Assembly: GCA_049587975.1 (NCBI GenBank)
Contig: JBAVEY010000149.1
Span: 20,728-84,727 of the forward strand
Length of the DNA: 64,000 nt
DNA from: Actinomycetota bacterium
GTDB taxonomy: Bacteria; Actinomycetota; UBA4738; HRBIN12
Direction: 5' to 3'
Each line of letters begins with the position of its first letter. The stretch's first letter is position 1. Shown here one piece after another: positions 3,257 through 41,877 of this stretch. A model generated the notes under the pieces. It saw only the letters and a list, made by a program, of their open reading frames with translations. It was not told the origin of the DNA and searched no databases. Made by a program: the position numbers and the translations under genes.

Positions 3257-3378
3257 GCCGTTCGGACCGCTGACCAGCGGTCATGGCGGCTCGTTGCCAC
3301 GGGTCCGGGGCCGCCGCACGATGGCCGCGGCCCGAACGCGGGCCGGACCATCCCGTGCACGACCGAGGAGGCCCCGTC

Positions 3379-4530
3379 ATGGCGTTCGACATGAGTCAGG
3401 TCCAGCGTGGCGCTCGCAACCGCCGCACGCCGTACCACGAGGCGGCGCAGCGCTACGACCCGAAGGGCTACACGGTCTACAACCACATGTACTTCCCCAT
3501 CCGGTTCGACTCGTTCGAGGCCGAGTTCGACACGCTGCTGAACGCGGTCACCCTGTGGGACGTCTCGGTCGAGCGGTGCCTGGAGATCGGTGGGCCCGAC
3601 GGTTTCCGCTTCGCGCAGCTGCTGACGCCTCGGGACCTGTCGAGGTGCGCCGTGGGTCAAGGCAAGTACGTGCTCATCTGCGACAGCGACGGCGGGATCG
3701 TGAACGACCCGGTCCTCACGCGGATGGACGAGAACACCTTCTGGTTCGCGCTGGCCTCCTCGGACGCGCTGCTGTTCGCTCGGGGCCTGAAGAACGCGTA
3801 CCCGGACCTCGACGTGACGATCCGCGAGGCGGACGTCGCCCCGCTCCAGGTCCAGGGGCCTCGGTCCAAGGACCTGATGGCCAAGCTGCTCGGCCCCGAG
3901 ATCCTCGACCTCCGTTACTACTTCTGGACCGAGGCCAAGATCGCCGGCGCGCCGGTCGTCGTCACGAGGACCGGATGGACGTCAGAGATCGGCTACGAGG
4001 TCTATCTGACCGATACCACCAAGGGCGCAGAGGTGTACGAGGCGATCATGGACGCCGGGCAGGAGTTCGGGATCCGGCCGACCGGACCCAGCGACATCCG
4101 GCGCATCGAGGGCGCGATCTTCAACTGGGGCGCCGACATGACGTACGAGAACAATCCGCTGGAGATGGGCCTCGAGCGCCTCGTCGACTGGGACCTGTCC
4201 GATGACGCCGCTATCTCGATGGCCGCGCTCCGCGCGATCAAGGAGCACGGCGTGCGCAGGCGCATCAACGGCCTGGAGCTCGACGGCGAGCCGTTCCCCG
4301 AGCTCAACAACGTCAAGTGGCCGGTCGTGGACGGCGGGGACGAGATCGGCACGGTGACCTCGGCGATCTACTCGCCGCGGCTCGCGCGCAACATCGGGTT
4401 CGCGTGGCTCCCGGAGGAACGGTCGAAGCTCGGCGAGGGGGTCACGGTCCAGACGGAGTGGGGTCCGCGGGGCGCGACGGTGGTGGAGATGCCGTTCGTC
4501 GACCCGAACAAGCAGATCCCGGTCTCCTAG
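3379..4530 (+). CDS. GcvT-family aminomethyltransferase-like protein, probably a THF-dependent (de)methylase; paralog 1
   Basis: ATG at 3379 is preceded by a GAGGAGG Shine-Dalgarno. The protein shows GcvT-fold hallmarks (YNHMYFP, VxLWDVSVER, RTGWTSEIGYEVY, and a C-terminal barrel ending WLP). It is a paralog of the next gene. Confidence 0.7.
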   Translation: MAFDMSQVQRGARNRRTPYHEAAQRYDPKGYTVYNHMYFPIRFDSFEAEFDTLLNAVTLWDVSVERCLEIGGPDGFRFAQLLTPRDLSRCAVGQGKYVLICDSDGGIVNDPVLTRMDENTFWFALASSDALLFARGLKNAYPDLDVTIREADVAPLQVQGPRSKDLMAKLLGPEILDLRYYFWTEAKIAGAPVVVTRTGWTSEIGYEVYLTDTTKGAEVYEAIMDAGQEFGIRPTGPSDIRRIEGAIFNWGADMTYENNPLEMGLERLVDWDLSDDAAISMAALRAIKEHGVRRRINGLELDGEPFPELNNVKWPVVDGGDEIGTVTSAIYSPRLARNIGFAWLPEERSKLGEGVTVQTEWGPRGATVVEMPFVDPNKQIPVS

Positions 4531-4679
4531 CCGCTCGCGGCATCGAACCTGAAGCACTGTTCAGGCCGGATCCCGCCTCTTCGGCGACGGACCGGCTTGC
4601 GGCGGGTCCGAGTCTGAACCATGATTCAACCTCAGGATGCGGGACCCGCCCGCAGGCTCGAAGGGAGACGTGCCCCGAT

Positions 4680-5861
4680 ATGGCCAACGAACGGCAGGAG
4701 ATGCTCGAGCAAAGTGCGACGATCTACTTCGGACCGTGGTACCGGCGTTCGCCGTTCTTCGAGGCCACGCGCCGAGCGGGGTGCACGGCCTACGACGTCT
4801 ACAACCACATGCTGCTGCCTGCCTACTTCGACGACCCGGACACGGAGTACTGGGCCCTGCTGAACGACGTCACGGTCTGGGACGTGGCGGTCGAGCGGAC
4901 GGTCGAGATCTCCGGGACGGACGCCGACCGGTTCGTGGACTCCCTCACCTGCAGGGACCTCACGAAGTGCGCGGTCAAGCAGGGCAAGTACATGATCGTG
5001 ACCGCGCCCGACGGCGGGATCGTCAACGACCCCGTCCTGCTCCACGTGGGGGAGAACCGGTGGTGGATGCAGCTCGCCGACTCGGACGCGGGCCTGTACG
5101 CGCTCGGGGCCGCGTCGCGGGCCAACCTGGACGTCGAGGTGTCGTACCCCCACGCCTACCCGATCCAGGTGCAGGGAGCGAAGGCCGCCAAGACGGTCGA
5201 GAAGCTGATCGGTCCCGCCGTCTACGACCTCAGGTACTACTGGTGCGACTGGTTCGACATCGGGGACATCCCCGTACTCATCAGCCGGACCGGGTGGACG
5301 GCGGTCCAGGGCTTCGAGATCAACCTGCTCGATCCCGCCCGTGGCGACGATCTATGGAACGCGGTCTTCGGGGCGGGCGAGGAGTTCGCGATCCGGCCGG
5401 TCGCGCCCGTGGAAGCACGCCGGATCGAGGCGGGGATCATGAACTACAACTCGGACATGACGCACGAGGACACGCCGTTGCACATCATGGGACTCGAGCA
5501 CCTGGTCGAGGATCAGCCGCAGGACTACACGGGCAAGGCGTCGCTCGAGGCGATCAGGGCGGCGGGGGTCGACCGCAAGCTCGTCGGGATCGAGTGGTCG
5601 GGCGACGAGCTGAAGGCCGAGTTGTCGTGGTTCTGGCCGGTGATCCGCGACGGCGGGCAGGTCGGCCGGGTGACCGACGCGGTGTGGTCCCCACGGCTGG
5701 AGAAGAACATCGGCTACGCGTGGGTGCCGATCGATCTCGCCCAGCCGGGCACGAGGATCGACGTGGAGTCCGAGCACGGGCAGATCACGGTCACGACGGC
5801 GTCGATCCCGTTCATCGATGCTCGCAAGGAGGTCCCGGCGGCGTCCCTGCGCGGGGCGTAG
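4680..5861 (+). CDS. GcvT-family aminomethyltransferase-like protein; paralog 2
   Basis: Start is MANERQEML. The motifs YNHMLLP, VTVWDVAVER and RTGWTAVQGFEIN match those of the upstream gene, so this is a tandem paralog. Confidence 0.7.
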   Translation: MANERQEMLEQSATIYFGPWYRRSPFFEATRRAGCTAYDVYNHMLLPAYFDDPDTEYWALLNDVTVWDVAVERTVEISGTDADRFVDSLTCRDLTKCAVKQGKYMIVTAPDGGIVNDPVLLHVGENRWWMQLADSDAGLYALGAASRANLDVEVSYPHAYPIQVQGAKAAKTVEKLIGPAVYDLRYYWCDWFDIGDIPVLISRTGWTAVQGFEINLLDPARGDDLWNAVFGAGEEFAIRPVAPVEARRIEAGIMNYNSDMTHEDTPLHIMGLEHLVEDQPQDYTGKASLEAIRAAGVDRKLVGIEWSGDELKAELSWFWPVIRDGGQVGRVTDAVWSPRLEKNIGYAWVPIDLAQPGTRIDVESEHGQITVTTASIPFIDARKEVPAASLRGA

Positions 5862-5904
5862 GGTTCGGCTCGGGCGATCCCGGGGTTCGACGAGGGGAGT
5901 TCCG

Positions 5905-6336
5905 ATGGAGGGAACCAGGCTCGACCGACGGCCGCCCGAGACGGCGCCTGCGACCAAGGGCTTCCACCGGGCCCTCCTGCTCCTCGAGCGCGTCACGAAG
6001 CAGACCGTGTGGGATTGCCGCATGTGCGGTCAGTGCATCCTGCACTCGACGGGGTTGTCCTGCCCGATGCGCTGCCCCAAGAACCTGCGGAACGGCCCGT
6101 GCGGCGGCACGCTGTTGAACGGCAACTGCGAGGTCCTCCCCGAGATGAAGTGCGTGTGGGTCTCCGCCTGGGAGGACGCGCAGCGGCTCCCGCTGTGGCG
6201 CGACCACATCCGACATGTCGAGCCGCCGGTCGACTGGCGGCTCCAGGGCACGTCGTCGTGGGAGAACCTCGTGACCGGGCGGGACCGGCGGTTCCCAGCC
6301 GGGTGGACCGAACCGAAGGCCGGATCCTCCGCGTGA
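5905..6336 (+). CDS. MetV-like small Cys-rich protein (MTHFR C-terminal-like zinc-ribbon domain), probable partner subunit of MetF
   Basis: ATG at 5905 follows a GAGGGGAG Shine-Dalgarno. The Cys pattern CRMCGQCIL..LSCPMRCPKNLRNGPCGG is characteristic of the MTHFR_C/MetV domain. It sits immediately upstream of metF. Confidence 0.55.
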   Translation: MEGTRLDRRPPETAPATKGFHRALLLLERVTKQTVWDCRMCGQCILHSTGLSCPMRCPKNLRNGPCGGTLLNGNCEVLPEMKCVWVSAWEDAQRLPLWRDHIRHVEPPVDWRLQGTSSWENLVTGRDRRFPAGWTEPKAGSSA

Positions 6337-6346
6337 CGCCCGGGTC

Positions 6347-7294
6347 ATGACGGAGCGGGCTCCATACAGCGAGCTCCACCGCTTGCTCCTGGCCGGGGAG
6401 TTCGTCGTCACGGCCGAGATGCAGACGAGCGACTCGGCCGATCCCGCTCACGTGATCGGTCTCGCCGAGACCCTCAAGAGCACCGTGGACGCGGTGAACT
6501 GCACCGACAACAGCGCGGCCCACGCGCACATCTCGGCGATGGCCGCCGCGCGCCTCCTGATCGAGGACGGCCTCGAACCCGTGATGCAGTTCGTCTGCCG
6601 GGACCGGAACCGGCTCGCGCTCCAGGCGGACCTGCTCGGCGCGGCCGCCCTCGGCGTCCGCAACGTCGTGTGCATGACCGGCGACGACGTGAGCGCCGGC
6701 GACCACCCGGAGACCAAGCCCATCTATGACATCGACTCGGTTCACCTGATCCGGACGGCCAGGCTCATGCGGGACGAGGGGACCTACCTGTCCGGACGGG
6801 GCCTCACCCACGCACCCGGATTCCTGATCGGCGCGGTCGAGAACCCGTTCGCGCCGCCCCTTCGGTTCCGGCCCATGCGGCTGGGGACGAAGATCGAGGC
6901 CGGGGCCGAGTTCATCCAGACGCAGATCTGCTTCAACCTGGAGAGGATGCGGATCTTCATGGCCCGGTGCGGCGAGCTGGGGCTGCTCGACCACGTCTGG
7001 GTGCTAGCGGGGGTGTTCGTGCCGAGCTCGGCGTCGGGGACCCGGTACCTGCGCGACCACGTGCCCGGCGTGGACGTCCCGGGCGAGGTGATCGAGCGCA
7101 TGGACGGTGTCCCGCGCGAGCGTCAGAAGGAGGAGGGCATCCGGATCGCGCTCGAGGTCGTGGAGGCGGTGCGGCAGATCCCGGGGGTGTCGGGGATCCA
7201 CCTGATGACCATCAACCACGAGGAGGCGATCCCGAAGGTGGTCGAGGGGGCCGGCTTGCTGCCACGCCCCGTCGCCGCGGGCCCGGTCCCGTGA
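6347..7294 (+). CDS. metF: 5,10-methylenetetrahydrofolate reductase (MetF family)
   Basis: TIM-barrel MTHFR features are present: VTAEM near the N-terminus, NCTDN, and a QFVCRDRNR-like region. Length is 315 aa. Confidence 0.8.
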   Translation: MTERAPYSELHRLLLAGEFVVTAEMQTSDSADPAHVIGLAETLKSTVDAVNCTDNSAAHAHISAMAAARLLIEDGLEPVMQFVCRDRNRLALQADLLGAAALGVRNVVCMTGDDVSAGDHPETKPIYDIDSVHLIRTARLMRDEGTYLSGRGLTHAPGFLIGAVENPFAPPLRFRPMRLGTKIEAGAEFIQTQICFNLERMRIFMARCGELGLLDHVWVLAGVFVPSSASGTRYLRDHVPGVDVPGEVIERMDGVPRERQKEEGIRIALEVVEAVRQIPGVSGIHLMTINHEEAIPKVVEGAGLLPRPVAAGPVP

Positions 7295-7398
7295 CCCTTT
7301 CGCGCAGCCCCTGCGCCGCTCTCGTGACGTTCCCCGCGACTGGGTGAACGTCCGGGCGCCGGGTGTCGAATGCCGGCTGAACCCGACAGACTGGAGCC

Positions 7399-8508
7399 AT
7401 GACCATGAGGCGTGCCCTCCTCGCGCTCGGCGCCGTAGCGGCGTTGGCGCTGTCCGCGTGCACCACGGGAAACACCAACACCACGCAACCCCAGATGAAC
7501 GGCTCTCCGGCGGCCAATTTCCCCTCCTCTCAGCCGATGCTCTCGAGCGGCAAGGATGCCGTCGTGAACGTGGTACACAGCGTCCTGCCGGCGGTCGTGA
7601 ACGTCGTCGTCGACACCGGCGCCGGTCAAGGGGAGGGCACGGGGTTCATCGTGCGCTCGGACGGCATCATCGTGACGAACTACCACGTGGTCGAGAACGC
7701 CTCGAAGGTTACGGTGCTGACGTCGGCGGACGACCCCGTTCAGTACGACGCGCGGGTGATCGGGGGCGACGTGGGGGCTGACCTGGCGGTTCTGGACATC
7801 GATGCCAGCGACCTGCCGACCGTGACGCTCGGCGACTCGGATGCCCTGCAGCTGGGGCAGCGCGTCGTCGCGGTGGGATACGCCCTCGGCCTCGAGGGCG
7901 GCCCCTCGGTGACCGCGGGGATCGTCTCCTCGCTGACGCGGCAGATCGACGTCCAGGACAGGGGATGTCCCGTCTCGGAGTGTGGCGCCGATCAGACGCG
8001 CGTCTACGACCACGTGATCCAGACCGATGCGGCCATCAACCCTGGGAACTCCGGTGGACCGCTGCTCAACATGGACGGGCAGGTCGTCGGGATCAACTCG
8101 GCGGGTGCGAACCAGGCCGAGAACATCGGGTTCGCGATCCAGATCGATTCGGTCAAGCCGACGATCTTCCAGGCCGCCGAGCACCCGTCACAGCCCGTGG
8201 CGTTCATGGGGATCAGCTCCGGCCCGGCCTCCGACCCGCAGGTCCAGTTCCAGTTCGCTCCGCCCGTGGATCAGGGCGCTGTCATCGTCGATGTCGTGGG
8301 CGGCGGCCCCGCCGACGACGCGGGGATCGTCGTCGGTGACACCATCGTGCGGTTCGACGGCCGGACGGTGACCGACTCCGAACAGCTCGGCGGGCTGATC
8401 CATTCGCATCGGCCAGGCGACGAGGTCAGCGTAGGGATCGTCCACGCCGATGGTTCCCAGGACGAGGTCACGGTCACGCTGGGCGTGAACCCGGTCCCGA
8501 CCGCCTGA
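7399..8508 (+). CDS. HtrA/DegP-like trypsin-family serine protease with PDZ domain; lipoprotein
   Basis: A signal peptide with lipobox LALSAC is followed by a trypsin-like core (TNYHVV, GNSGGPLLN) and a C-terminal PDZ-like segment. Confidence 0.8.
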   Translation: MTMRRALLALGAVAALALSACTTGNTNTTQPQMNGSPAANFPSSQPMLSSGKDAVVNVVHSVLPAVVNVVVDTGAGQGEGTGFIVRSDGIIVTNYHVVENASKVTVLTSADDPVQYDARVIGGDVGADLAVLDIDASDLPTVTLGDSDALQLGQRVVAVGYALGLEGGPSVTAGIVSSLTRQIDVQDRGCPVSECGADQTRVYDHVIQTDAAINPGNSGGPLLNMDGQVVGINSAGANQAENIGFAIQIDSVKPTIFQAAEHPSQPVAFMGISSGPASDPQVQFQFAPPVDQGAVIVDVVGGGPADDAGIVVGDTIVRFDGRTVTDSEQLGGLIHSHRPGDEVSVGIVHADGSQDEVTVTLGVNPVPTA

Positions 8509-8556
8509 TCCAGAGCGTGGCGGCCCCTGCCCCGGTGGTGCGCTAGCCTGACCTGC

Positions 8557-9759
8557 GTGAAGGTGAGGCTCCGCAACCCCGACCGGGAGGTCGAGCTCGC
8601 CGGCGGTCGCAAGATCCACGACGTCCTCGGTGAGCTGGGCATCAACCCCGACACCGTGCTCGTGATCCGCGAGCGCGAGCTGCTCACGCGCGAGGACCGC
8701 GTCGCGGAGGCCGACGTCATCGAGGTCCGACCGGTGATCAGCGGCGGCGCCCGCGTCGAGAACCGGATGAAGTGCCGGCGCTGCAAGGCGCCGGCGGTGG
8801 TCGAGATCCGCCGGCACAACGCGGCCTTCTGCGCCGACTGCTTCCTGCGCCACGTGCGCGAGCAGGTCAGACGGGCGATCGGGGCGCACGACATGTTCGT
8901 GGCATCCGACCGGATCCTCGTAGCGGTCTCCGGCGGCAAGGACTCGCTCGCGCTCTGGGACGTGCTGCTCGAACTCGGCTACCGGGCGGATGGACTCTAC
9001 CTGGGCCTCGGGATCGGCGAGTACTCGGACCGGTCGCACGACCTCGCGGCGACGTTCGCCCGCGAGCGCGGCGCCCATCTCGTCGAGGTGGATCTTGCCC
9101 GCGACTACGGGTTCGACGTCCCAACCGCCGGACGCAAGGGCTCGCGCTCGACGTGCGCGGTCTGCGGCCTATCCAAGCGGTACGTCTTCAACCGGACCGC
9201 TCGCGAGGGCGGGTACGACGTGATCGCGACGGGCCACAACCTGGACGACGAGGCGGCCACGCTCCTCGGGAACACCTTGCGGTGGCAGACCGACTACATC
9301 GCGCGCCAGTCCCCGGTGCTCCCCGCGGAGGAGGGGTTCGCCCGCAAGGTCAAGCCCTTGTACCGCCTGTCGGAGCTCGAGACCGCCGCGTTCGCGTTCC
9401 TGCGCGGGATCGACTACGTGGTCGAGGAGTGCCCGCTGGTCGGCGGGAACACGCAGCTCCGCTACAAGGAGGCCATGAACCAGCTCGAGTCGACCTCTCC
9501 GGGAACCAAGGCGCAGTTCCTCTTCGGCTACCTCGAGCGCGCCGCCCCGCTCTTCGCGACACAGGACGACGTGCGGCTCGTCGGGTGCGAACGCTGCGGC
9601 CAGCCGACCACCGGTCGTTTCTGTGCCTTCTGCCGCGCGCAGGCCCAGATCCTGGGCGAGCGGCTCGAGGCGCCCCGGGACGCAGGTGATCGCGAGACGG
9701 CCGCGCAGCTTTCCGAGGAGGTCCTTCCCGTCGAGATCTTCGGGGCGGCCAACCGGTGA
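8557..9759 (+). CDS. Fusion of a ThiS/MoaD/TtuB-like beta-grasp domain (internal GG at about residues 63-64) to a TtuA/NcsA-like PP-loop tRNA thiolase
   Basis: GTG at 8557. The first ~64 residues end ...VIEVRPVISGG and read straight through a 6-aa linker (ARVENR) with no stop. They are followed by an N-terminal zinc finger (CRRCKAP..CADC), the PP-loop SGGKDS, a central CAVCG and a C-terminal zinc finger (CERCG..CAFC), as in TtuA. Confidence 0.65.
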   Translation: MKVRLRNPDREVELAGGRKIHDVLGELGINPDTVLVIRERELLTREDRVAEADVIEVRPVISGGARVENRMKCRRCKAPAVVEIRRHNAAFCADCFLRHVREQVRRAIGAHDMFVASDRILVAVSGGKDSLALWDVLLELGYRADGLYLGLGIGEYSDRSHDLAATFARERGAHLVEVDLARDYGFDVPTAGRKGSRSTCAVCGLSKRYVFNRTAREGGYDVIATGHNLDDEAATLLGNTLRWQTDYIARQSPVLPAEEGFARKVKPLYRLSELETAAFAFLRGIDYVVEECPLVGGNTQLRYKEAMNQLESTSPGTKAQFLFGYLERAAPLFATQDDVRLVGCERCGQPTTGRFCAFCRAQAQILGERLEAPRDAGDRETAAQLSEEVLPVEIFGAANR

Positions 9760-10532
9760 TCGGACCCTTCGAGGCGGGCGAGAAGATCCTGTTGGTGGAT
9801 CAGCGGGACCGCAGGTACCTGCTCACGCTCCAACACGGCGTGACCTGGCACTCGCACGGCGGTGGGCTGCCGCACGACCTGCTGATCGGGTCCGCCGAGG
9901 GCACCCTGGTGCACTCGGCGACCGGGATGGCCTTCCGGGCGTTCCGCCCGCGGATGGCCGACTTCGTGCTGAAGATGCCGCGGGGCGCGCAGGTCGTCTA
10001 CCCGAAGGACGTGGGCGCGATCCTGGTCGGTGCCGACGTCTTCCCCGGATCGCGGGTCCTGGAAGCGGGGACGGGTTCGGGCTCGCTGACGCTCGCCTTG
10101 TGCCGCGCGACCGGCCCCGAGGGCCGGGTCGTCTCCTATGACCTCCGACCCGAGTTCCAGGCCGGTGCCGCCCGGAACATCGAGTCGTTCTTCGGGAAGA
10201 TGCCCGACTGGCTCGAGCTCCGCGGCGGCGACGTCCGCGAGATCGCCGGGAGCGGCGAGATCTTCGACCGCGCGATCTTGGACCTGCCGGAGCCCTGGGC
10301 GATGCTCGAGCCGCTCGCGAGCGCCCTGCCCGCGGGAGCGATCGTGTGCGGGTACCTGCCCACGACCAACCAGGTGCAGGAGCTGGTACTCGCGTTGGGA
10401 CGCAACGGGTACGAGCATCTGGAGACCTTCGAGGTGCTGCACCGGTCCTGGCATGTGACGGCCCGGAGCGTCCGGCCGGATCAGCGCATGGTCGCGCACA
10501 CGGGGTTCATCACCTTGGCTCGTCGCATCTGA
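9756..10532 (+). CDS. trmI: tRNA (adenine58-N1)-methyltransferase TrmI
   Basis: The SAM-methyltransferase fold has the motifs VLEAGTGSGSLT and an ILDLPEPW-like region. Its position directly upstream of arc matches Rv2118c-like synteny. The start is GTGA-coupled to the upstream gene. Confidence 0.8.
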   Translation: MIGPFEAGEKILLVDQRDRRYLLTLQHGVTWHSHGGGLPHDLLIGSAEGTLVHSATGMAFRAFRPRMADFVLKMPRGAQVVYPKDVGAILVGADVFPGSRVLEAGTGSGSLTLALCRATGPEGRVVSYDLRPEFQAGAARNIESFFGKMPDWLELRGGDVREIAGSGEIFDRAILDLPEPWAMLEPLASALPAGAIVCGYLPTTNQVQELVLALGRNGYEHLETFEVLHRSWHVTARSVRPDQRMVAHTGFITLARRI

Positions 10533-10656
10533 CAGGCCTCAGGTAAGGCGTCCGAGCGGCCGACAACCGTATCCATAGGCCAGAAGACGTCCCCCGAACC
10601 TCACCGATCGAGGGCGGGGCCGGGGGTATGCTTCCGCACCGCGGGAGGTGAAGGAG

Positions 10657-12408
10657 ATGCCGGAGCCGGATCCACGCGAACAACAGGAACAGCACGAGAA
10701 GCAGGTCCACGAACTGCAGACGCAGGTCCGCTTCCTCGAGGACGAGGTCTCGCTGCTGCGACGCCGGCTCACGAACGCTCCCCGTCAGGTCAAGCTGCTC
10801 GAGGACAAGCTCCTCGAGGCTCGGTCGGATCTCTCCCGCGCGCTCGGCCAGAACGAGAAGCTCGCCGGCACCCTGCAGGCCGAGAAGGAGCGGATCGAAG
10901 GGCTGCGTGAGGAGGTCGAGAAGCTGAGCCAGCCCCCCGCGTCATTCGGCGTGTACCTGACGTCCAACGACGACGGCTCGGTGGACGTGTTCACGGCGGG
11001 GCGCAAGATGCGGGTCAACGTCTCGCCGGACGTGGAGGCCGACCGGCTGCATAAGGGCGCCGAGGTGATCCTGAACGAGGCCCTGAACGTCGTGGACGTG
11101 CTCACGCCCGATCGGGCCGGGGAGGTCGTGAAGGTCAAGGACCGGCTCGGCGACGATCGCGTGATCGTGGTCGGCCGTGGCGACGAGGAGCTCGTCGCCA
11201 CGCTCGGGACGTCGTTGTTGGGAGAGCAGATCCGCGCGGGGGACCCCCTCCTGATCGACCCCCGGTCCAACGTGGCGCTCGAGAAGCTGCCGAAGGAAGA
11301 GGTCGAGGAACTGGTTCTCGAAGAGGTCCCCGACGTCTCCTACGAGGACATCGGCGGACTCGAGGGCCAGATCGAGGCGATCCGTGACGCGGTGGAGCTG
11401 CCCTTCCTGTACGCGGAGCTCTTCCAGGAGCACCAGCTCGAGGCGCCGAAGGGCGTGCTGCTGTACGGGCCGCCGGGGTGCGGCAAGACCCTGATCGCCA
11501 AGGCCGTGGCGAAGTCGTTGGCCGACAAGGTGCGGGAGCGCACAGGACGCCAGGACGCGCACTCGTACTTCCTCAACATCAAGGGGCCCGAGCTGCTGAA
11601 CAAGTACGTGGGCGAGACCGAGCGCCAGATCCGTCAGATCTTCCAGCGGGCGAAGGAACGGAGCGAGGAGGGCCTGCCGGTCATCGTGTTCTTCGACGAG
11701 ATGGACTCGATCTTCCGGACCCGCGGCACGGGGATCTCGAGCGACGTGGAGTCGACGATCGTGCCCCAACTCCTGTCGGAGCTCGACGGGGTCGAGACCC
11801 TGAAGAACGTGATCGTGATCGGCGCGTCGAACCGCGAGGACCTGATCGATCCCGCGATCCTGCGCCCCGGGCGCCTCGACGTGAAGATCAAGATCGAGCG
11901 CCCCGACGCCGCCCAGGCGGGCGACATCATGGGGAAGTACCTCAACCCTTCCGTGCCGATCCACCCCGAGGACGTGGCCCGCGCCAACGGCGACCTGAAC
12001 ACCGCGACCAAGCGGATGATCCAATCCACGGTGGACCGGATGTACTCGGAGGCGGAGGACAACCGGTTCCTGGAGGTGACCTACGCGAGCGGCGACAAGG
12101 AGATCCTGTACTTCAAGGACTTCAACTCGGGCGCGATGATCGAGAACATCGTGCGCCGCGCGAAGAAGGAGGCGATCAAGCGCTTCCTGTCGACGGGCGA
12201 GAAGGGGATCAAGGCCGAGGACCTGACGCACGCGATCCGAGACGAGTTCAAGGAGAACGAGGATCTGCCGAACACGACGAACCCCGATGACTGGGCGCGG
12301 ATCTCGGGTAAGAAGGGCGAGCGGATCGTGTACGTCCGGACCCTCCTCGGCGACGGGGACGGCGAGGGCAGGCAGGTCGAGCGGGTCAGCGCCGGCCAGT
12401 ACCTGTAA
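10657..12408 (+). CDS. arc: Proteasome-associated AAA+ ATPase ARC/Mpa
   Basis: There is an N-terminal coiled coil, Walker A GPPGCGKT, Walker [11 protein letters not shown] and the C-terminal docking motif GQYL. An alternative GTG start lies at 10648. Confidence 0.9.
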
Positions 12409-12417: not shown

Positions 12418-13902
12418 ATGGCCATCGCGAAGGTCATCGGTACCGAGACCGAGTACGGCATCTCCGCGGTGGCGTCGCCCGAGTTCAATCCGGTCATCTC
12501 GTCGTCGTTGCTGATCAGCACCTACGCGGGGGCGCTGCGTCGGATCCGGTGGGACTACGAGCAGGAGTCTCCGCTCCGCGACGCGCGAGGCTTCGAGCCG
12601 GTCCAGCTCCGGGAACCGTCGGAAGAGGACCTCGGGCTGGCGAACGTGATCTTGCCGAACGGCGCGCGGTACTACGTCGACCACGCCCATCCCGAGTACT
12701 CCACCCCCGAGTGCGCGACCCCGCGGGCCCTCGTGATCCACGACAAGGCCGGCGAGCGTGTGCTCGAGCGGTCGCTCGAGGAGGTCCACCGGACGATGCC
12801 GGGCGGTCCTCGGCTCGCCGTCTACAAGAACAACAGCGACGGCAAGGGCAACTCCTACGGGACGCACGAGAACTACCTCGTCGACCGCCGGGTGCCCTTC
12901 GGGAGCCTCGTCTCCGGGCTCACCCCGTTCTTCGTGAGCCGCCAGATCTTCTGCGGCGCCGGCAAGCTCGGGGGAGAGGCGGCGTGGGACGAGCGCTCGC
13001 GCGACCGCTACCAGCTCACGCAGCGCGCCGACTTCTTCGAGGCCGAGGTTGGCTTGGAGACGACGCTCAAGCGCCCGATCATCAACACCCGCGACGAGCC
13101 GCACGCCGACCCCGAGAAGTACCGGCGGCTGCACGTGATCATCGGCGACGCGAACCTGTGCGAGGTCGCGACGCTGTTGAAGCTCGGGACGACCTCGCTG
13201 GTCCTCAAGCTGATCGAGGACGACGACGTCCCCGATCTGACCCTCGCGTCGCCGGTGCCGTCCCTGCACGACGTGTCGCGCGATCTCACCTGCACCGGGC
13301 TCATCCGTCTCGCGGACGGCCGGAAGCTCACGGCGGTGCAGATGCAGTGGGAGTACCTCGAGCGGGCGAGGAAGTACGTCGAACAGGAGGACACCACCGC
13401 CGACAACCTCGAGGTGCTCGAGCGCTGGGAGGCCGTCCTGACGGCGCTCGAGGACGACCCGATGCAGCTGTCGCGTGAGCTCGACTGGGTCGCGAAGTAC
13501 CGGCTGCTCGACGGCTATCGCGAACGTGACGGCCTGGACTGGTCCGATGCCAGGTTGCGGCTGATCGACCTCCAGTACCACGACGTCCGTCGCGACAAGG
13601 GCCTCTACCACCGGCTCGTCGCCACCGGGCAGGTGGAGCGGCTCGTCTCCGACGAGGACGTGGAGCGAGCGATCATGGAGCCACCGGAGGATACGCGCGC
13701 CTATTTCCGAGGGCGCTGCATCGCCCGGTACCCCGACTCGATCGCCGCCGCGTCGTGGGACTCGATCATCTTCGACACCGGCGCGGACGCGCTCCAGCGC
13801 GTGCCGATGCGCGAACCCCTCCGAGGGACCAAGGAGCACGTCGACGGGGTCCTGGCGCGGGCCGGCGACGCGGGCGAGCTCGTCGAGCTGCTCCGGTCGT
13901 AG
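12418..13902 (+). CDS. dop: Pup deamidase/depupylase Dop
   Basis: This is a PafA/Dop-family protein (GTETEYG at the N-terminus) located between arc and pup. Confidence 0.9.
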   Translation: MAIAKVIGTETEYGISAVASPEFNPVISSSLLISTYAGALRRIRWDYEQESPLRDARGFEPVQLREPSEEDLGLANVILPNGARYYVDHAHPEYSTPECATPRALVIHDKAGERVLERSLEEVHRTMPGGPRLAVYKNNSDGKGNSYGTHENYLVDRRVPFGSLVSGLTPFFVSRQIFCGAGKLGGEAAWDERSRDRYQLTQRADFFEAEVGLETTLKRPIINTRDEPHADPEKYRRLHVIIGDANLCEVATLLKLGTTSLVLKLIEDDDVPDLTLASPVPSLHDVSRDLTCTGLIRLADGRKLTAVQMQWEYLERARKYVEQEDTTADNLEVLERWEAVLTALEDDPMQLSRELDWVAKYRLLDGYRERDGLDWSDARLRLIDLQYHDVRRDKGLYHRLVATGQVERLVSDEDVERAIMEPPEDTRAYFRGRCIARYPDSIAAASWDSIIFDTGADALQRVPMREPLRGTKEHVDGVLARAGDAGELVELLRS

Positions 13903-14025: not shown

Positions 14026-14226
14026 GTGCCTCAGGAGCAGGAGCAGAAGAAGACCCAGAAGCGATCCGGCGGCGGCTCGGATGACGAGGCCGGCCAGGTC
14101 TCCTCGGCCGCCAAGGGCGAGAAGCTGAAGGAGGAGATGGACGACATCCTCGACGAGATCGACTCCGTCCTGGAGGAGAACGCCGAGGAATTCGTCAAGT
14201 CGTACGTCCAGAAGGGCGGCGAATGA
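14026..14226 (+). CDS. pup: Prokaryotic ubiquitin-like protein Pup (PupE variant, C-terminal GGE)
   Basis: 66 aa, intrinsically disordered and acidic, with a C-terminal ...[13 protein letters not shown]. The stop codon overlaps the prcB start (ATGA). Confidence 0.9.
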
Positions 14227-15029
14227 CCGCGGGTCCACCGTCCCCGCCCGAAGCCTCGGGCGGACCGATCGGCGCGAACCCGAGCTTCTTCGATCTCGTG
14301 CGGACGAGTCGTCCCGAGACCCTGCCGTCGGCGCCCGGAACCTCCGACGTCGTGGCGCCGCACGGGACGACCGTGGTCGCGCTCAAGTTCGCCTCGGGTG
14401 TCGTGTTCGGAGGCGACCGGCGCGCCACGGAGGGCTTCTCGATCGCCGACGAGAAGATGGAGAAGGTCTTCGCGGCGGACGACTTCTCCGTGATCGCGAT
14501 CGCCGGCGCCGCGGGCCAGGCCATCGAGATCGTCAAGCTGTTCCAGCTCGAGCTCGAGCACTACGAGAAGATCACGGGGGACCGCCTGTCGCTGGAAGGC
14601 AAGGCGAACCGGCTCGCGCAGATGATCCGAGGGAACCTGCCGATGGCGATCCAGGGCCTGGTCGTGGTCCCGCTGTTCGGCGGCTTCGACGAGCGCCGCG
14701 CGGAGGGCCGGATCTTCTACTACGACGCCACCGGCGGTCGGTGGGAGGAGGATGACTTCCACGCGACCGGGTCGGGCGGGCGTCCCGCCAAGAGCTCCTT
14801 GAAGAAGCGCTGGCGTGCGGGTCTGGATCGCGCCGAGGCCCTGCAGGTCGCCGTCGAGGCGCTGGTGGACGCGTCGCAGGAGGATGCCGCGACCGGGGGC
14901 CCCGACCCGACACGCGGGATCTTCCCGACCGTGGTCGCGGTGACATCCGGGGGAGCGGAGACGGTCGGGGACGACGAGCTGCGGACTGCGTACGACGGCG
15001 TCGTCGCACGCGGTGGTGGATCCGCATGA
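14223..15029 (+). CDS. prcB: 20S proteasome beta subunit PrcB
   Basis: The propeptide is followed by the HG|TTVVAL active-site Thr1 context. Confidence 0.9.
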
Positions 15030-15712
15030 GCTTCATGCCCTACGTGCCGCCCGAGCAGCTGATGAAGGATCGGTCCGACTTCGCGCACAAGGGGATCGCG
15101 CGAGGGAAGTCGGTCGTCGGCCTCGAGTACGCGGGCGGCGTCCTGTTCATCGCGGAGAACCCGAGTGCCACGCTGCACAAGATCAGCGAGATCTACGACC
15201 GGATCGCGTTCGCCGGCGTCGGCAAGTACAGTGAGTTCGAGGACCTGCGCATCAGCGGGGTGCGCCATGCCGACCTGCGGGGCTACTCGTACGGGCGAGA
15301 CGACGTGCGCGCCCGGGATCTCGCGAACGCCTACTCGCAGGCCCTGTCGACGATCTTCACCCAGCAGATGAAGCCGTACGAGGTCGAGATCTTGGTGGGC
15401 GAGGTGGGCGAGGGATCCGGGGGCAACGAAATCTACCACGTCTTGTTCGACGGGACGGTGACCGACGAGCACGAGCACGTCGCGATCGGCGGCCACGCGG
15501 AGGAGCTTTCGAGCGCGGTGCAGGCGGCGTTCGAGCCCGGCTGGGACCTGTCGACGGCGGTCCGGGAGGCCGTGAGGGCCCTGTCGACCGCCGAGGGCCG
15601 TGAGATCGTGGCCGAGCAGGTGGAGGCGGGGGTCCTCGACCGGGCGCGTGCGCAGCGCCGGAAGTTCCGCCGCCTGTCCGAGGACGAGGTGGCGCAGATC
15701 CTCGCCGGCTGA
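15026..15712 (+). CDS. prcA: 20S proteasome alpha subunit PrcA
   Basis: Alpha-subunit family protein immediately downstream of prcB, with an ATGA overlap. Confidence 0.9.
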   Translation: MSFMPYVPPEQLMKDRSDFAHKGIARGKSVVGLEYAGGVLFIAENPSATLHKISEIYDRIAFAGVGKYSEFEDLRISGVRHADLRGYSYGRDDVRARDLANAYSQALSTIFTQQMKPYEVEILVGEVGEGSGGNEIYHVLFDGTVTDEHEHVAIGGHAEELSSAVQAAFEPGWDLSTAVREAVRALSTAEGREIVAEQVEAGVLDRARAQRRKFRRLSEDEVAQILAG

Positions 15713-15752: not shown

Positions 15753-17111
15753 GTGGAGCGACGCATCTTCGGGCTCGAGAACGAGTACGGCGTCACCTGC
15801 ACCTTCCGCGGGCAACGACGCCTGTCCCCCGACGAGGTGGCCCGGTACCTGTTCCGCCGGGTCGTGCACTGGGGTCGGTCCTCGAACGTGTTCCTCGAGA
15901 ACGGCGCCCGCCTCTACCTGGACGTGGGTTCACACCCCGAATACGCGACGCCCGAGTGCGATCGGATCTCGGACCTCGTCGCCCACGACAAGGCGGGGGA
16001 GCGGATCCTCGAGGCCCTCCTGGCGGCCGCTGAGGTCCGCCTCCACGAGGAAGGCATCAGCGGCCAGGTCTACCTGTTCAAGAACAACACCGACTCGGCG
16101 GGCAATTCGTACGGCTGCCACGAGAACTACCTGGTGGCTCGGCAGGGCGAGTTCGCGCGGATGGCCGACCTGCTGATCCCGTACTTCGTCACCAGGCAGA
16201 TCTGGTGCGGTGCCGGCAAGGTCCTGCACGGTCCTCGGGGAGCGGTGTTCTGCATCGCGCAGCGGGCCGAGCACATCTGGGAGGGCGTATCGTCCGCTAC
16301 GACCCGCTCGCGGCCGATCATCAACACGCGCGACGAACCGCACGCCGACGCCGAGCGCTTCCGCCGTCTGCACGTGATCGTCGGGGACTCGAACATGTCG
16401 GAGTTCAGCTCGTGGATGAAGGTCGGGATCACCGATCTCGTTCTTCGGATGGTCGAGGCCAACACGGTGATGCGCGACCTCACGCTCGAGAACCCCATCC
16501 GGGCGATCCGGGAGATCAGCCACGACGTCACGTGCCGCAAGAAGGTGCGTCTCGCGAACGGTCGCGAGCTCTCCGCGATCGAGGTCCAGGAGGAGTACTA
16601 CGAGCGCACCGAACGCTTCCTCGAACGTCGGGGCCCGGACCCGCAGGCCAAGCAGCTCCTGCAGGAGTGGCGCGAGGCCCTCGACGCGCTGCTCCTCCAG
16701 GAGCCGCACCGGCTCCTCCGCAAGGTCGACTGGGTAGCCAAGCAACAGCTGATCGAGACCTACCGCGAGCGCCATCAGCTCCCACTGTCGCACCCGCGAG
16801 TCGCCCTGCTCGATCTCGCGTACCACGACGTCAACCGCACCCGCGGCCTCTACTACGTGCTCGAACGCGCGGGCAAGATGGAGCGGACCGTGGCGGAGAA
16901 GGAGATCCAGCGCGCGATGCGTGAACCTCCGCAGACGACGCGGGCGAAGCTCCGCGGGGACTTCATCCGTCACGCGAAGCAGAAACGCCGTGACTACACG
17001 GTCGACTGGGTGCACCTGAAGCTCAACGACCAGGCGCAGCGCACGGTGCTGTGCAAGGACCCGTTCCGCAGCGTGGACGAGCGCGTCGAGCAGCTGATCG
17101 CCCACATGTAG
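15753..17111 (+). CDS. pafA: Pup--protein ligase PafA
   Basis: PafA/Dop family ([16 protein letters not shown]); paralogous to dop. Confidence 0.9.
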
Positions 17112-33088: not shown

Positions 33089-33246
33089 CCGCGTATCGTA
33101 CGGCGCTCCACGTGGCCGAGCCTGTGGAGCCGCGACGGCCCACGTCGCGAACCCCGGGGCGGCCGATTCCCGCGAGCCGCTGATCGATGTACAACGTACC
33201 GGTAGTACCGGACGCGGCTCGACCTCCTCGGAGCCGGGGAGGACAC

Positions 33247-33924
33247 GTGGTCGCGACGGCGTTGGTTCCGCGCGTGCGGTTCGTCTGCGTCCGACGCGCG
33301 GGGGTCGAACGGCGCTTCGCGGTGCTCGACGCCCAGGCCCGCGAACGCTACGTCGAGCTGGTCGCGGGCGCGGCCGAAGCGATCGAGGCCCTCCTCTCGC
33401 CGGCCGTGATCGCGAACCGGGTCGCGTCCTGGCGCCTGGATCCGCCCGAGCTCCGGCTGCGACCGTGGCGGCTCGAACGCCGGGTGTTCGCCGCGCGGTT
33501 GGGGAGCCTCGCCTCGCGGCGGGGCGCCATCGCGTTCGCCGACGTCCGGCGGTGCTACGCGTCGATCTCGCCCGCGACGGTGGGGCGGACGCTCCAGCTG
33601 GCCGGCAGCCCGAACGCGGAGGAGGTCGAGAGGTTCCTCGCCGAGCTCCAGCCCTTCGGCGTCCGCGGGCTTCCCGTCGGTCCCGACGGGTCGGCCGTGC
33701 TCGCGAACGCCGTCCTCGCCCCGGTCGACCGGGCGCTGCGGGACTCGGGGATCGAACACCTGCGCTGGGTGGACGACGTGGTCCTGCGCGGCACCGACCC
33801 GCAGGCCGCCGTGACCGTGTTCCGGCACGCGCTCGCCGAGCTCGGCCTGCGGCCGAACGAGCGCAAGACCCGACTCGTCCTCGACCCCGCGTCGCTGCGG
33901 GGATCGGTGTCCGCCGGGCGGTAA
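33247..33924 (+). CDS. Compact reverse-transcriptase-domain protein (fingers/palm only; no thumb or accessory domain)
   Basis: RT motifs are present in order: motif A AIAFADVRRCYASI, motif B' GLPVGPDGSAVLANAVLAPVD, motif C RWVDDVVL (a YxDD variant) and motif 6/7 LGLRPNERKTRLV. GTG at 33247 is preceded by GGGGAGGA; an alternative ATG lies at 33187. Confidence 0.55.
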   Translation: MVATALVPRVRFVCVRRAGVERRFAVLDAQARERYVELVAGAAEAIEALLSPAVIANRVASWRLDPPELRLRPWRLERRVFAARLGSLASRRGAIAFADVRRCYASISPATVGRTLQLAGSPNAEEVERFLAELQPFGVRGLPVGPDGSAVLANAVLAPVDRALRDSGIEHLRWVDDVVLRGTDPQAAVTVFRHALAELGLRPNERKTRLVLDPASLRGSVSAGR

Positions 33925-39581: not shown

Positions 39582-40070
39582 CTAGCCGTAGAAGATCACG
39601 GTGATCCAGATGCGATCGTCGGAGTGCACGATGCCGACGGCCGCGTGCTCGTAGACCCTGCGTAGGATGTTCTTGCGATGGTCGGTGCTCGCCATGAACG
39701 CGTCCTCCAGGCTGTCGAGGGACCCACCGACGCCGACGTTCTCCCCGCCCAGCTCCCACCGGTAGCCCTCGAGCGCGTCGCGGAGCTGATCTGCCGTCGA
39801 ATGGAAGATGAAGCCTTTGTGAGCCATGGCCTGGCTGTGTGACTTTGCGTAGCGGGCCAGGCGGTCGGCGAAGGACAGAGCGCTTCGATCGTGAGTGGCG
39901 CGGTCGTGGTTGGTCAGTGCCAGCATGTATCGCCGGGGCCCGACCTTCTCCCCCATCGCCGTGCCACCCGCCGCTCCCACGAACAGCAGCACCGACACGA
40001 AGACGGCCAGGAGTCCTGCGAGCCCCCGGCCGCTGGTACTTCGCGCGACCATGTCGAACCCCCGACTCAC
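39582..40070 (-). CDS. CAP/SCP/PR-1 (YkwD-like) domain secreted protein, paralog A
   Basis: An N-terminal signal/TM segment is followed by a CAP-domain core (HSQAMA..GFIFHS, ENVGVG, YEHAAVGIV) and a C-terminal ...VIFYG. It is a paralog of 44201..44746. Confidence 0.65.
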   Translation of the reverse strand: MSRGFDMVARSTSGRGLAGLLAVFVSVLLFVGAAGGTAMGEKVGPRRYMLALTNHDRATHDRSALSFADRLARYAKSHSQAMAHKGFIFHSTADQLRDALEGYRWELGGENVGVGGSLDSLEDAFMASTDHRKNILRRVYEHAAVGIVHSDDRIWITVIFYG

Positions 40071-40369
40071 GGGTCCCGGAAGGGGATCGAGCCCGCGGGC
40101 TCGAATCCTTCGGCAGCCCGGCCACCTCCCTCCCGACTTCGAGGGGCCCGAAGCCCTTGCGACCCACCGTCGGCGGCGGTTTGCGCTTGTCGGGACCGAC
40201 CCGGTTGTGTCGTGGGTCTGTATCGGTCACTTCATAGGGCTGCTTGAGGACCGTGCCGCCAACGATGGCTAGCTCAGCTAGCCGAGTGGGGCCGGCCCGC
40301 CTCCCTCTGCGAACGGCGCGGGTCGGCAGGCGTCCTGCCGACGGAGCCGGCGGGGTTCTGGACGCTGGG

Positions 40370-41788: not shown

Positions 41789-41877
41789 GAGCGTCCCCTG
41801 CCGATCCGGCGGACCACCCACGCGCACGGGAGCCCCGACGCGCGGCGCCGGGTCGCCGGTCGGGGGCGCGGCGTCGC

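Follow-up and report, generated by a model that had tools for sequence, protein, structure and literature searches.

An in-frame ttuB-ttuA fusion coupled to trmI in uncultured Actinomycetota, a possible carrier-enzyme precursor cleaved after an internal diglycine

Two open reading frames (ORFs), both on the plus strand, make up positions 8557 to 10532 of the window, i.e., the whole 64-kb stretch of DNA that was analysed (Table 1). In the first, which encodes 400 aa, a carrier segment ending in EVRPVISGG (aa 1–64) is followed by the residues ARVENR and then, from codon 71, by a sequence beginning MKCRRC. The second encodes a protein of 258 aa. An exact-sequence lookup of the 400-aa protein matched no record. 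Scans of positions 7200–10800 for promoters and terminators gave nothing over shuffled background, and an Rfam scan gave no match near the module.

Table 1. Features of the ttuB-ttuA-trmI module and of the genes downstream, with positions in the window
Feature	Position	Strand	Basis or remark
Fused ttuB-ttuA ORF	8557..9759	+	GTG start, 400 codons and stop; ORF list, domain matches, model
TtuB/ThiS-type beta-grasp sulfur-carrier domain, aa 1-64, ends RPVISGG	8557..8748	+	Pfam ThiS, 5ztb_E
Linker ARVENR, aa 65-70; predicted cleavage site G64/A65	8749..8766	+	pLDDT <50 at 63-67, cluster comparison
TtuA core, aa 71-362	8767..9642	+	Alignment to T. thermophilus TtuA, 94-sequence alignment, Foldseek
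N-terminal zinc finger C73/C76/C92/C95	8773-8841	+	Residue-by-residue alignment
PP-loop S125-GGKDS-130	8929-8946	+	Read from sequence
[4Fe-4S] ligands C200, C203, C292	9154-9156, 9163-9165, 9430-9432	+	Alignment to T. thermophilus TtuA
C-terminal zinc finger C344/C347/C356/C359	9586-9633	+	Residue-by-residue alignment
Poorly conserved C-terminal tail, aa 363-400	9643..9756	+	pLDDT, dN/dS 0.58
trmI, tRNA m1A58 methyltransferase	9756..10532	+	GTG start overlaps ttuA stop as GTGA; 258 aa
arc/mpa	10648-12408	+	Pfam; downstream context, outside module
dop	12418-13902	+	Pfam; downstream context, outside module
pup, ends GGE	14026-14226	+	ORF; downstream context, outside module
prcB	14223-15029	+	Pfam; downstream context, outside module
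prcA	15026-15712	+	Pfam; downstream context, outside module
pafA	15753-17111	+	Pfam; downstream context, outside module

A sequence-only reading of this DNA had taken the N-terminal segment for a beta-grasp carrier with a diglycine, and this assignment was borne out by the predicted fold and by matches to both ThiS and TtuB. Thus, the Pfam ThiS profile covered aa 9–64 up to its final position (76/76) with a score of 24.4 bits for the whole protein and 28.7 bits for the domain alone (cut-off 22.5), and in a PDB sequence search aa 3–64 aligned with residues 12–74 of TtuB (5ztb_E), the latter being the chain end (E 2.6e-12). The domain was modelled by AlphaFold2 as beta-beta-alpha-beta-beta-beta with pLDDT of 86–94, and Foldseek superimposed it on TtuB with a TM of 0.89 over 65 columns at 51% identity (5ztb_E) and an rmsd of 0.8 A over 58 columns (5gha_F). 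G63 and G64 (codons at 8743–8748) fall on the last Pfam ThiS position and on the last residue of TtuB, and RPVISGG was invariant across the fused clusters described below. As encoded, however, Gly64 precedes 336 further residues and has no free C-terminal carboxylate unless the protein is cleaved, and the N-terminal part was therefore classed as a TtuB-type domain or precursor rather than a mature carrier. Values of dN/dS in fused genes were 0.18 for TtuB, 0.16 for TtuA and 0.58 for the C-terminal tail, which indicates purifying selection on the TtuB domain and suggests that it is still functional.

The remainder of the protein corresponds to a complete TtuA. Residues 71–362 aligned with residues 1–292 of Thermus thermophilus TtuA (E 1.9e-94, PDB sequence search), and Pfam placed TtuA_LIM_N on aa 72–97 (E 1.1e-10) and the PP-loop family on aa 120–290 (ATP_bind_3 match). 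The three cysteines C200, C203 and C292 correspond by alignment to C130, C133 and C222 of the T. thermophilus enzyme and were at least 90% conserved among 94 aligned sequences, in which the columns of the PP-loop SGGKDS were invariant or nearly so. Foldseek matched the model to TtuA (5ztb_B) with a TM of 0.91 and an rmsd of 1.4 A. NCBIfam NF049949 was by far the top-scoring model, with 113 bits for the NcsA model, although its 259.9 bits fell below the cut-off of 450; this is a Pyrococcus-type TtuA model, and the protein lies closer to the T. thermophilus enzyme. Specificity for 2-thiolation of U54 or m5U54 is probable for this part of the protein, given 51% identity to a characterised enzyme and the conserved coupling to trmI.

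The AlphaFold2 model of the whole 400-aa protein had a mean pLDDT of 90.2 and a pTM of 0.86, with pLDDT below 50 confined to the linker (63–67) and the C-terminal tail; in the latter, mean pLDDT per 10-residue block dropped from 94 to 36 and residues 387–400 were below 50. With approximately 51% identity and matching folds for each part relative to the T. thermophilus TtuA-TtuB complex, both are close, intact homologues of the Thermus proteins. Pfam, PDB sequence and AlphaFold2/Foldseek results, including the alignments to TtuB and TtuA structures and to the ThiS profile, all agreed with the earlier description of a TtuB-type carrier that shares one reading frame with an entire TtuA.

The ORF that follows was identified from its matches as TrmI, these being to Pfam GCD14 (E 2.2e-28) and TrmI-like_N (E 5.9e-16) and, as best PDB sequence matches, to M. 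tuberculosis Rv2118c (E 6.7e-63) and T. thermophilus TrmI (E 5.9e-45). As the sequence-only reading had proposed, trmI is coupled downstream of the fused gene; the pairing was kept across related loci, trmI being found 3' of ttuA in every related locus that reached past ttuA (approximately 50 of 55). The fused ttuB-ttuA gene is co-transcribed and translationally coupled with trmI. The conserved order of ttuA and trmI is consistent with the published finding that, in Thermus, m1A58 speeds sulfur transfer by TtuA (PMC6418473). No gene for TrmFO or TrmA was noted within the window.

The same fused architecture was noted in 27 other species-level metagenome-assembled genomes (MAGs), short-read assemblies among them, as well as in over 100 clusters of metagenomic proteins at 72–89% identity, all of approximately 400 aa. 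A sequencing or assembly indel that joined two ordinary genes in the window could in principle have produced such an ORF, and obvious frameshifts were seen in some related loci from long-read MAGs (L026, L053, L021 and L041). In L026 the frameshift lies within ttuB and the junction is that of a normal split pair. More than 100 clusters drawn from JGI, ENA, NCBI and Logan were fused in frame through 76 distinct linkers, every one of them in frame, many contig names among the 27 genomes (k141_, NODE_) were those of short-read assemblers, and the linkers of two related loci (L001 and L002) were nearly identical to that of the window. Since the same in-frame architecture recurs across independent assemblies, with no hidden stop or frameshift found, the chance of an artefact is negligible. 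The TtuB-TtuA fusion is real and is kept in a clade of uncultured Actinomycetota.

In close relatives, Acidimicrobiia included, ttuB and ttuA were separate genes; there, ttuB ended in Gly-Gly plus a tail of 0–10 aa, with a stop codon that overlapped the ttuA start as ATGA or GTGA. The nearest split relatives start ttuA at a GTG three codons upstream of the position of Met71, a start that the fusion destroyed. Downstream of the junction, the block AACCGGATGAAGTGCCG was common to split and fused genes. In a simple neighbour-joining tree, a single large clade of fused genes enclosed one split member (L032), and L024 fell among split genes as an independent fusion, while P0227 and P0201 represented a second, more distant fused lineage. 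From the GG-tailed ttuB overlapping ttuA in split relatives, the shared AACCGGATGAAGTGCCG block and the tree, the fusion is judged to be a derived and recurrent merger of frames, one that arises from an overlapping ttuB/ttuA pair when the stop/start overlap is slightly altered. The transition illustrates how two genes that overlap by 4 bases at stop and start, with the Gly-Gly codons serving also as the ribosome-binding site, can become a single fused one.

How TtuB and TtuA might be obtained from the fused gene was considered from the junction itself. Linkers in 119 fused clusters ranged from 1 to 12 aa (P0119, with GG-A-M-R-C, has one of the shortest), with the 76 distinct sequences already mentioned, yet the first residue past the diglycine was A, S or G in 117 of the 119 and was never Pro, as compared with 8.5% Pro at the remaining linker positions. 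This combination of free drift in the linker with constraint immediately past the GG makes the junction look like a cleavage site.

Two routes had been offered in the sequence-only reading, release at the GG and internal translation initiation at MKCRRC; the former is favoured by the comparison of fused with split genes and the latter is not. Were internal initiation at Met71 to make most of the free TtuA, the full-length protein would be a minor product or just the source of TtuB. Met71 corresponds by alignment to the first residue of standalone TtuAs and was kept in 112 of the 119 fused clusters, so that some internal initiation is possible. However, the Shine-Dalgarno (SD) sequence before the ttuA start was far weaker in fused than in split genes, median predicted anti-SD pairing being −5.0 kcal/mol (n = 28) for the former and −9.5 kcal/mol (n = 21) for the latter (Mann-Whitney p = 3e-7, uncorrected for shared ancestry, as are all of our fused-versus-split comparisons). 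A GGAG/GAGG motif preceded the ttuA start in 38% of split genes, where the Gly-Gly codons GGA-GGN themselves constitute the SD, and in none of the fused genes. In addition, seven of the 119 clusters had T, S, L or I in place of Met71, which was also lost in P0227 and similar sequences, the GTG start of the nearest split relatives has disappeared, and a TtuB made alongside an internally initiated TtuA would still have no free GG end. Internal initiation as the main source of TtuA is accordingly considered quite improbable. Decay of the SD before Met71, loss of Met71 in 7 of 119 clusters and the tails on split TtuBs together favour release at the GG. Because the 1–10 aa tails of unfused TtuBs would need trimming, a GG peptidase would be needed in this lineage in any case.

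The preferred reading is that the gene encodes a TtuB-TtuA precursor cleaved after the GG, as with MoaX and MoaD-MoaE, and we put its probability at roughly 0.65. According to this proposal, the ubiquitin-like sulfur carrier for 2-thiolation of tRNA U54 would be synthesised joined to the N-terminus of the enzyme that it serves, and a cytosolic peptidase, by analogy most likely of the JAMM/MPN+ type, would cut after Gly64 to yield equimolar TtuB-GG and TtuA. Adenylation and thiocarboxylation of TtuB would then fall, again by analogy, to an E1-like enzyme (TtuC or MoeZ type) with its gene in another part of the genome, after which TtuB-COSH would hand its sulfur to the unique iron of the TtuA [4Fe-4S] cluster and TtuA would adenylate and then thiolate U54 (or m5U54) of the T-loop. 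TrmI would add m1A58 to the same loop, a modification that speeds thiolation in Thermus. Published work indicates that the TtuB pathway runs via a C-terminal thiocarboxylate (PMC5372717) and that the unique Fe of TtuA is bound by TtuB through its free C-terminal end (PMC9821441). Likewise, cleavage is needed for activity of MoaX (PMC4326299), DRJAMM cuts a MoaD-MoaE fusion so as to expose the C-terminal Gly, and HvJAMM1 cuts linear SAMP fusions (PMC8832034).

Candidate genes for the processing and activation steps were not found in the window or related loci, and these steps therefore rest on analogy. Approximately 55 window ORFs were searched with Pfam, and none encoded a JAMM/MPN+, E1-like (ThiF/MoeB), rhodanese or cysteine desulfurase protein. 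When 706 ORFs, taken from the window together with the 55 related loci, were scanned for the JAMM motif, the sole matches were Dop and no JAMM protein was recovered. Two proteases encoded nearby were considered and set aside: the N-terminus of an HtrA-like protease upstream (7399–8508) reads like a lipoprotein signal peptide, so that this protein is probably exported, and an M50 peptidase that precedes ttuB in some loci is a membrane protein and is missing from that position in the window.

The absence of a peptidase or E1-like gene from the window and related loci would also fit a fusion that acts uncleaved, with TtuB retained for good as a part of TtuA that serves structure, docking or regulation and with sulfur reaching the Fe-S cluster from a sulfide or persulfide donor instead of a TtuB thiocarboxylate. 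TtuA enzymes from other organisms can take inorganic sulfide in vitro, so that a carrier-independent route is possible in principle, and the whole-chain pTM of 0.86 is also compatible with a permanently joined protein. Such a protein could mimic conjugates reported from Thermus, in which TtuB is covalently bound to TtuA (PMC5372717). An uncleaved function is nevertheless thought unlikely. The GG is invariant and is followed by A, S or G although the remaining linker drifts; close relatives switch between the fused and the split form, as is easily explained if the mature products are the same; and Gly64, when tied up in an amide bond, cannot be thiocarboxylated and has no free carboxylate with which to bind the unique Fe.

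The nearest known system is that of T. thermophilus TtuA/TtuB, which acts with TtuC, TtuD and IscS in formation of m5s2U54 (2-thioribothymidine) and for which structures are available (5GHA, 5ZTB); the T-loop network of TtuA, TtuB and TrmI has been described in thermophiles (PMC6418473, PMC5372717). Folds, PP-loop, the three Fe-S cysteines, both zinc fingers and the TtuB diglycine are shared at approximately 51% identity, and the connection with TrmI and m1A58, which is biochemical in Thermus, takes the form of a coupled operon in the window. In contrast, TtuB of Thermus is made on its own and terminates with the GG, whereas the GG of the window protein is internal, with TtuB N-terminal to TtuA, and ttuC-like or ttuD-like genes do not occur near the window module.

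A parallel in layout is provided by the fused molybdopterin synthases MoaX of M. tuberculosis and DR2607 (MoaD-MoaE) of Deinococcus radiodurans, in which a ThiS/MoaD-type carrier likewise precedes the enzyme that draws on its thiocarboxylate and the two meet at a GG. These proteins must be cleaved to be active, and the JAMM peptidase that cuts the Deinococcus fusion (dr_0402) is encoded elsewhere in the genome (PMC4326299, PMC8832034). Thus, a GG-cleaved fusion of carrier and enzyme is, as a principle, already established for MoaD-MoaE. The present protein differs in carrier subfamily and in partner, a PP-loop Fe-S tRNA thiolase as opposed to molybdopterin synthase, and in that its cleavage is predicted. 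No description of a natural TtuB-TtuA fusion was found in the searchable literature.

Eukaryotic ubiquitin, in its ribosomal-protein fusions and as polyubiquitin, is another N-terminal, linear beta-grasp fusion that a peptidase cuts after GG, and Pro just past the GG is not tolerated there. Ubiquitin, however, is not fused to the enzyme that employs it, and its role is protein tagging as opposed to sulfur transfer. Urm1 with Ncs6/Ncs2 in eukaryotes and SAMP2 with NcsA in archaea likewise combine a ubiquitin-like thiocarboxylate carrier with a PP-loop thiolase of the TtuA family, but these act on wobble U34 and are products of separate genes. The lineage studied here, which must expose the TtuB diglycine either from a short tail or from a full fusion, is predicted to possess a GG-specific peptidase and offers a natural test case for the maturation of bacterial ubiquitin-like sulfur carriers.

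The earlier suggestion of a thermotolerant host was not supported as stated. Relatives were, according to record titles, mostly soil and groundwater MAGs, and hosts of the window type are uncultured Actinomycetota, mostly from soil by the same titles, as opposed to established thermophiles such as Thermus. A nominal growth temperature of approximately 70 C, obtained from an IVYWREL value of 0.433, was set aside because the thermophile-like amino-acid composition is confounded by 70% GC and comes from 40 proteins only. The present locus extends the TtuA/TtuB/TrmI network, as a single coupled operon, to widespread uncultured soil Actinomycetota, which raises the question of what role U54 thiolation plays away from hot environments.

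The adjacent Pup-proteasome genes had also been singled out in the sequence-only reading, but only conserved synteny was seen and nothing found here ties TtuB to Pup. It is conceivable, as a highly speculative extension, that the precursor is a bacterial counterpart of ubiquitin-fusion precursors, that cleavage by a GG peptidase serves as a regulated checkpoint for s2U54 and m1A58 in non-thermophilic soil Actinomycetota, and that released TtuB may act as a protein modifier, in which case the proximity of Pup might be a functional link. A literature search for joint mention of Rv2118c and Rv2115c found nothing, and the matches from a TrmI protein search were all from the same clade, so that actinobacteria without ttuA were not represented among them. 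Rv2118c presumably lies near mpa in M. tuberculosis as well. Among the related loci, the order ttuBA-trmI-arc was conserved, and in all of them trmI was syntenic with arc, dop and prcBA.

The two plus-strand ORFs were arranged as the sequence-only reading had described, and translation of the first gave, in order, MKVRLRNPDREVELAGGRKIHDVLGELGINPDTVLVIRERELLTREDRVAEADVIEVRPVISGG, the linker ARVENR and MKCRRCKAPAVV... (see table). Among PDB sequences, T. thermophilus TtuB aligned through its final residue with aa 3-64 (E 2.6e-12), and residues 1-292 of T. thermophilus TtuA aligned end to end with aa 71-362 (E 1.9e-94), C200, C203 and C292 being the counterparts of the Thermus Fe-S ligands C130, C133 and C222. 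These cysteines, the SGGKDS PP-loop (125-130) and the two CxxC...CxxC zinc fingers, both of which were present, were invariant or nearly so in an alignment of 94 sequences. The top NCBIfam model was the TtuA equivalog, named for the Pyrococcus enzyme, at 259.9 bits against a cut-off of 450, with NcsA (113 bits) and TtcA (75 bits) well below.

Features of the window, with Pfam matches of the fused ORF numbered by residue
Feature	Position	Strand	Remarks
One-carbon gene cluster	3283-7294	+	
Fused ttuB-ttuA ORF	8557-9759	+	GTG start; 400 aa
ThiS match (Pfam)	aa 9-64		Reaches final profile position; score above gathering score
TtuA_LIM_N match (Pfam)	aa 72-97		
PP-loop family match (Pfam)	aa 120-290		
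trmI	9756-10532	+	258 aa; GTGA overlap with fused ORF
Pup ORF	14026-14226	+	C-terminus ...QKGGE, not GGQ
ORF with partial reverse-transcriptase (RVT_1) match	33187-33924	+	245 aa; E 1.9e-7; flanked by AsnC-type regulator and amidohydrolase
CAP/SCP-domain ORF	39582-40070	-	Riboswitch aptamer just upstream
c-di-GMP-I riboswitch aptamer (RF01051)	40109-40195	-	42.1 bits vs gathering 35; full model covered
One-carbon gene clusters	40370-43203, 48870-49262	-	
Weak M50-like ORF	58034-58678	-	Far from ttuBA

An AlphaFold2 model built from the 94-sequence alignment had a mean pLDDT of 90.2 and a pTM of 0.86, confidence being low only in the C-terminal tail and at residues 63-67, which span GG and the first part of the linker. 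The N-terminal domain (pLDDT 86-94) showed the order beta-beta-alpha-beta-beta-beta and was matched by Foldseek against the PDB to TtuB 5ztb_E (TM 0.89 over 65 columns, 51% identity) and to 5gha_F (rmsd 0.8 A), while the TtuA part matched 5ztb_B (TM 0.91, rmsd 1.4 A, 51% identity). Thus, the beta-grasp fold on which the earlier proposal had been staked was found by sequence, model and Foldseek alike. By sequence and predicted fold, both domains appear to pass as TtuB and TtuA family members, and the system would be expected to work like the Thermus TtuA/TtuB pathway. In one respect the carrier departs from Thermus TtuB: as encoded it has no free C-terminus, Gly64 being internal, and the N-terminal part is for this reason filed as a TtuB-type precursor domain.

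More than 100 clusters from a search of 5.8 billion proteins matched the fused ORF at 72-89% identity, nearly all of them 390-424 aa long with full query coverage, and their N-termini ran from an invariant RPVISGG through a linker to M[KR]CRRC. Source annotations of these proteins read only 'tRNA-5-methyluridine54 2-sulfurtransferase', 'TIGR00269 family' or 'ATP-binding protein', and full-text literature searches turned up no account of a TtuB-TtuA fusion in nature. Scanning a single genome for each species yielded 55 related loci, all from MAGs of uncultured Actinomycetota (by record titles mainly from soil and groundwater, one bin being from a hot spring), and 27 of these (L001-L025, L041 and L046) had ttuB and ttuA joined in frame like the window. 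The in-frame fusion is thus conserved and, as an observation, well supported. Its creation by assembly error is excluded, as the same fusion occurred in independent assemblies, many with contig names (k141_, NODE_) indicating short-read assemblers, and the linkers of L001 and L002 were almost identical to that of the window. The window itself had a GC content of 70% and an IVYWREL value of 0.433, nominally thermophile-like for an estimator that is biased at high GC and was applied to a small sample of 40 proteins.

Separate ttuB and ttuA genes were present in 21-22 of the remaining loci, comprising close relatives (69-81% identity; L026-L030, L032-L034, L037-L040) and Acidimicrobiia (56-63% identity; L042-L051), so that both states envisaged in the sequence-only reading, fusion kept or genes separated by a stop, occur in relatives. 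After GG, the split ttuB genes encoded a further 0-10 residues (e.g., SA, GAGT, GGR or ARAAALGRHS before the stop), with the stop immediately after GG in L049 only. The ttuB stop and the ttuA start overlapped in ATGA or GTGA, ttuA being in the +2 frame. Locus L026 was considered as fused and rejected, its junction being split with a frameshift inside ttuB. In DNA alignments a AACCGGATGAAGTGCCG block was common to split and fused junctions, and fused genes had GGGA, GCGA or GAGA where their nearest split relatives, L032 and L039, had the GTGA overlap, the frame changing in the variable stretch of the junction. Stop and start would be lost at once through a small indel in this overlap, and the ancestral state was probably that of separate genes. 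A neighbour-joining tree of the TtuA domain contained one large fused clade with split L032 inside it, while L024, fused separately, was placed among split genes; further fused sequences (P0227, P0201 and P0159) were more distant. The split/fused transition has therefore occurred more than once, the event count from a distance tree being approximate.

Linkers of 119 fused clusters, counted from GG up to the Met71 position, were 1-12 aa long, comprised 76 distinct sequences and were rich in G, R, A, N, S and P. The residue directly after GG was A, S or G in 117 of 119 clusters and Pro in none (0/119), with Pro at 8.5% of other linker positions. Among fused genes, dN/dS was 0.18 for TtuB, 0.16 for TtuA and 0.58 for the C-terminal tail, values which indicate that the TtuB domain is constrained as strongly as the enzyme. 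An uncleaved fusion, in which TtuB is a fixed domain and sulfide is used directly, leaves the constraints on GG and the next residue unexplained and is considered unlikely.

The internal ribosome-binding site had decayed in fused genes. Thus, median predicted pairing between the 16S anti-Shine-Dalgarno (SD) sequence and the 18 nt 5' of the ttuA start was -9.5 kcal/mol for split (n=21) versus -5.0 for fused genes (n=28; Mann-Whitney p = 3e-7, kinship ignored), and GGAG or GAGG preceded the ttuA start in 38% of split versus 0% of fused genes (kinship again ignored). The SD of split ttuA was formed by the ttuB Gly-Gly codons GGA GGN themselves (L027-L040, L043-L051), which in fused genes were mostly GGC GGC. 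This decay, together with the T, S, L or I that stands in place of Met71 in 7 of 119 clusters, argues against internal initiation there supplying most of the TtuA; such initiation would also leave TtuB unreleased, and we regard it as less probable still than the uncleaved fusion.

TtuB acts through a thiocarboxylate on its C-terminal glycine, made after adenylation by an E1-like enzyme (PMC5372717), and in a crystal complex the TtuA cluster has its unique iron coordinated by the TtuB C-terminus (PMC9821441). Neither role is open to an internal Gly64. Most likely, the fused product would be a precursor cut after GG, a mechanism consistent with the invariant GG, the small residue next to it and the drifting remainder of the linker, with strong purifying selection acting on the carrier, and also with the SD decay and the ease with which split and fused forms interchange. 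Nearly all split TtuBs of L027-L040 and L043-L051 carry 1-10 residues past GG and should likewise require C-terminal trimming; a peptidase removing such tails is therefore predicted throughout the lineage, and fusion would have been possible without a new factor. The processing and activation steps that we infer have parallels elsewhere: activity of M. tuberculosis MoaX requires cleavage (PMC4326299), a Deinococcus JAMM peptidase cuts a MoaD-MoaE fusion to expose the terminal Gly, linear SAMP fusions are substrates of HvJAMM1 (both PMC8832034) and the mycobacterial E1-rhodanese MoeZR works for several such carriers (PMC3227635). The principle of a carrier-enzyme fusion cleaved at GG is thus already known from molybdopterin synthase fusions, which parallel the present architecture, as do eukaryotic ubiquitin fusion precursors more loosely; for the TtuB-TtuA fusion, processing specific for GG is a clear prediction that can be tested.

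Scans of about 55 window ORFs and of the 55 related loci revealed no gene for a JAMM peptidase, an E1-like enzyme, a rhodanese or a desulfurase. Two other candidates for the processing enzyme were rejected, the upstream HtrA-like protease, which appears to be an exported lipoprotein, and an M50 peptidase of the site-2 protease family (~257 aa; Pfam E 1.5e-19), which is membrane-embedded. The latter is encoded after htrA and directly 5' of ttuB in L026, L027, L029, L033, L039 and L053, and no M50 gene lies between htrA and ttuB in the window.

Identification of the second ORF as TrmI was borne out by matches to GCD14 and TrmI-like_N (Pfam) and by its closest solved relatives, M. tuberculosis Rv2118c (E 6.7e-63) and T. 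thermophilus TrmI (E 5.9e-45). In all related loci extending beyond ttuA, Acidimicrobiia included, trmI lay directly 3' of ttuA (overlap or a few dozen bases), followed by arc/mpa. Given this adjacency and the finding that in Thermus m1A58 made by TrmI speeds sulfur transfer by TtuA (PMC6418473), the operon appears to encode two coupled modifications of one T-loop, as had been proposed. Depending on whether U54 is methylated, the thiolated product may be s2U54 and not m5s2U54.

The genes 3' of trmI were arc, dop, pup, prcB, prcA and pafA, in an order conserved across loci. The adjacency to Pup genes remarked on earlier is therefore real, while nothing in the window or related loci tied TtuB to pupylation. 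This proximity looks like inherited synteny of trmI, since M. tuberculosis Rv2118c (trmI) also lies close to mpa (Rv2115c). A Pup ending in GGE would need no deamidation before ligation.

In Acidimicrobiia, a candidate ORF of ~72 aa ending ...RVLGG, with no Pfam match, was conserved just 5' of ttuB (L043, 5775-5993; L044, L047, L048, L051). In L021 and L041 the usual ttuA stop was missing and the ttuA frame continued over trmI in a different frame, and one MAG contained the entire syntenic region twice (L026 and L053), with frameshifts in both copies; such features probably stem from long-read indel errors or a mixture of strains and have no biological meaning. Related loci share with the window a conserved arrangement 5' of htrA and ttuBA, made up of two GcvT-like aminomethyltransferase paralogues and an MTHFR gene accompanied by a separate ORF for the C-terminal domain, and glycine-cleavage P subunits and H protein were encoded elsewhere in the window.
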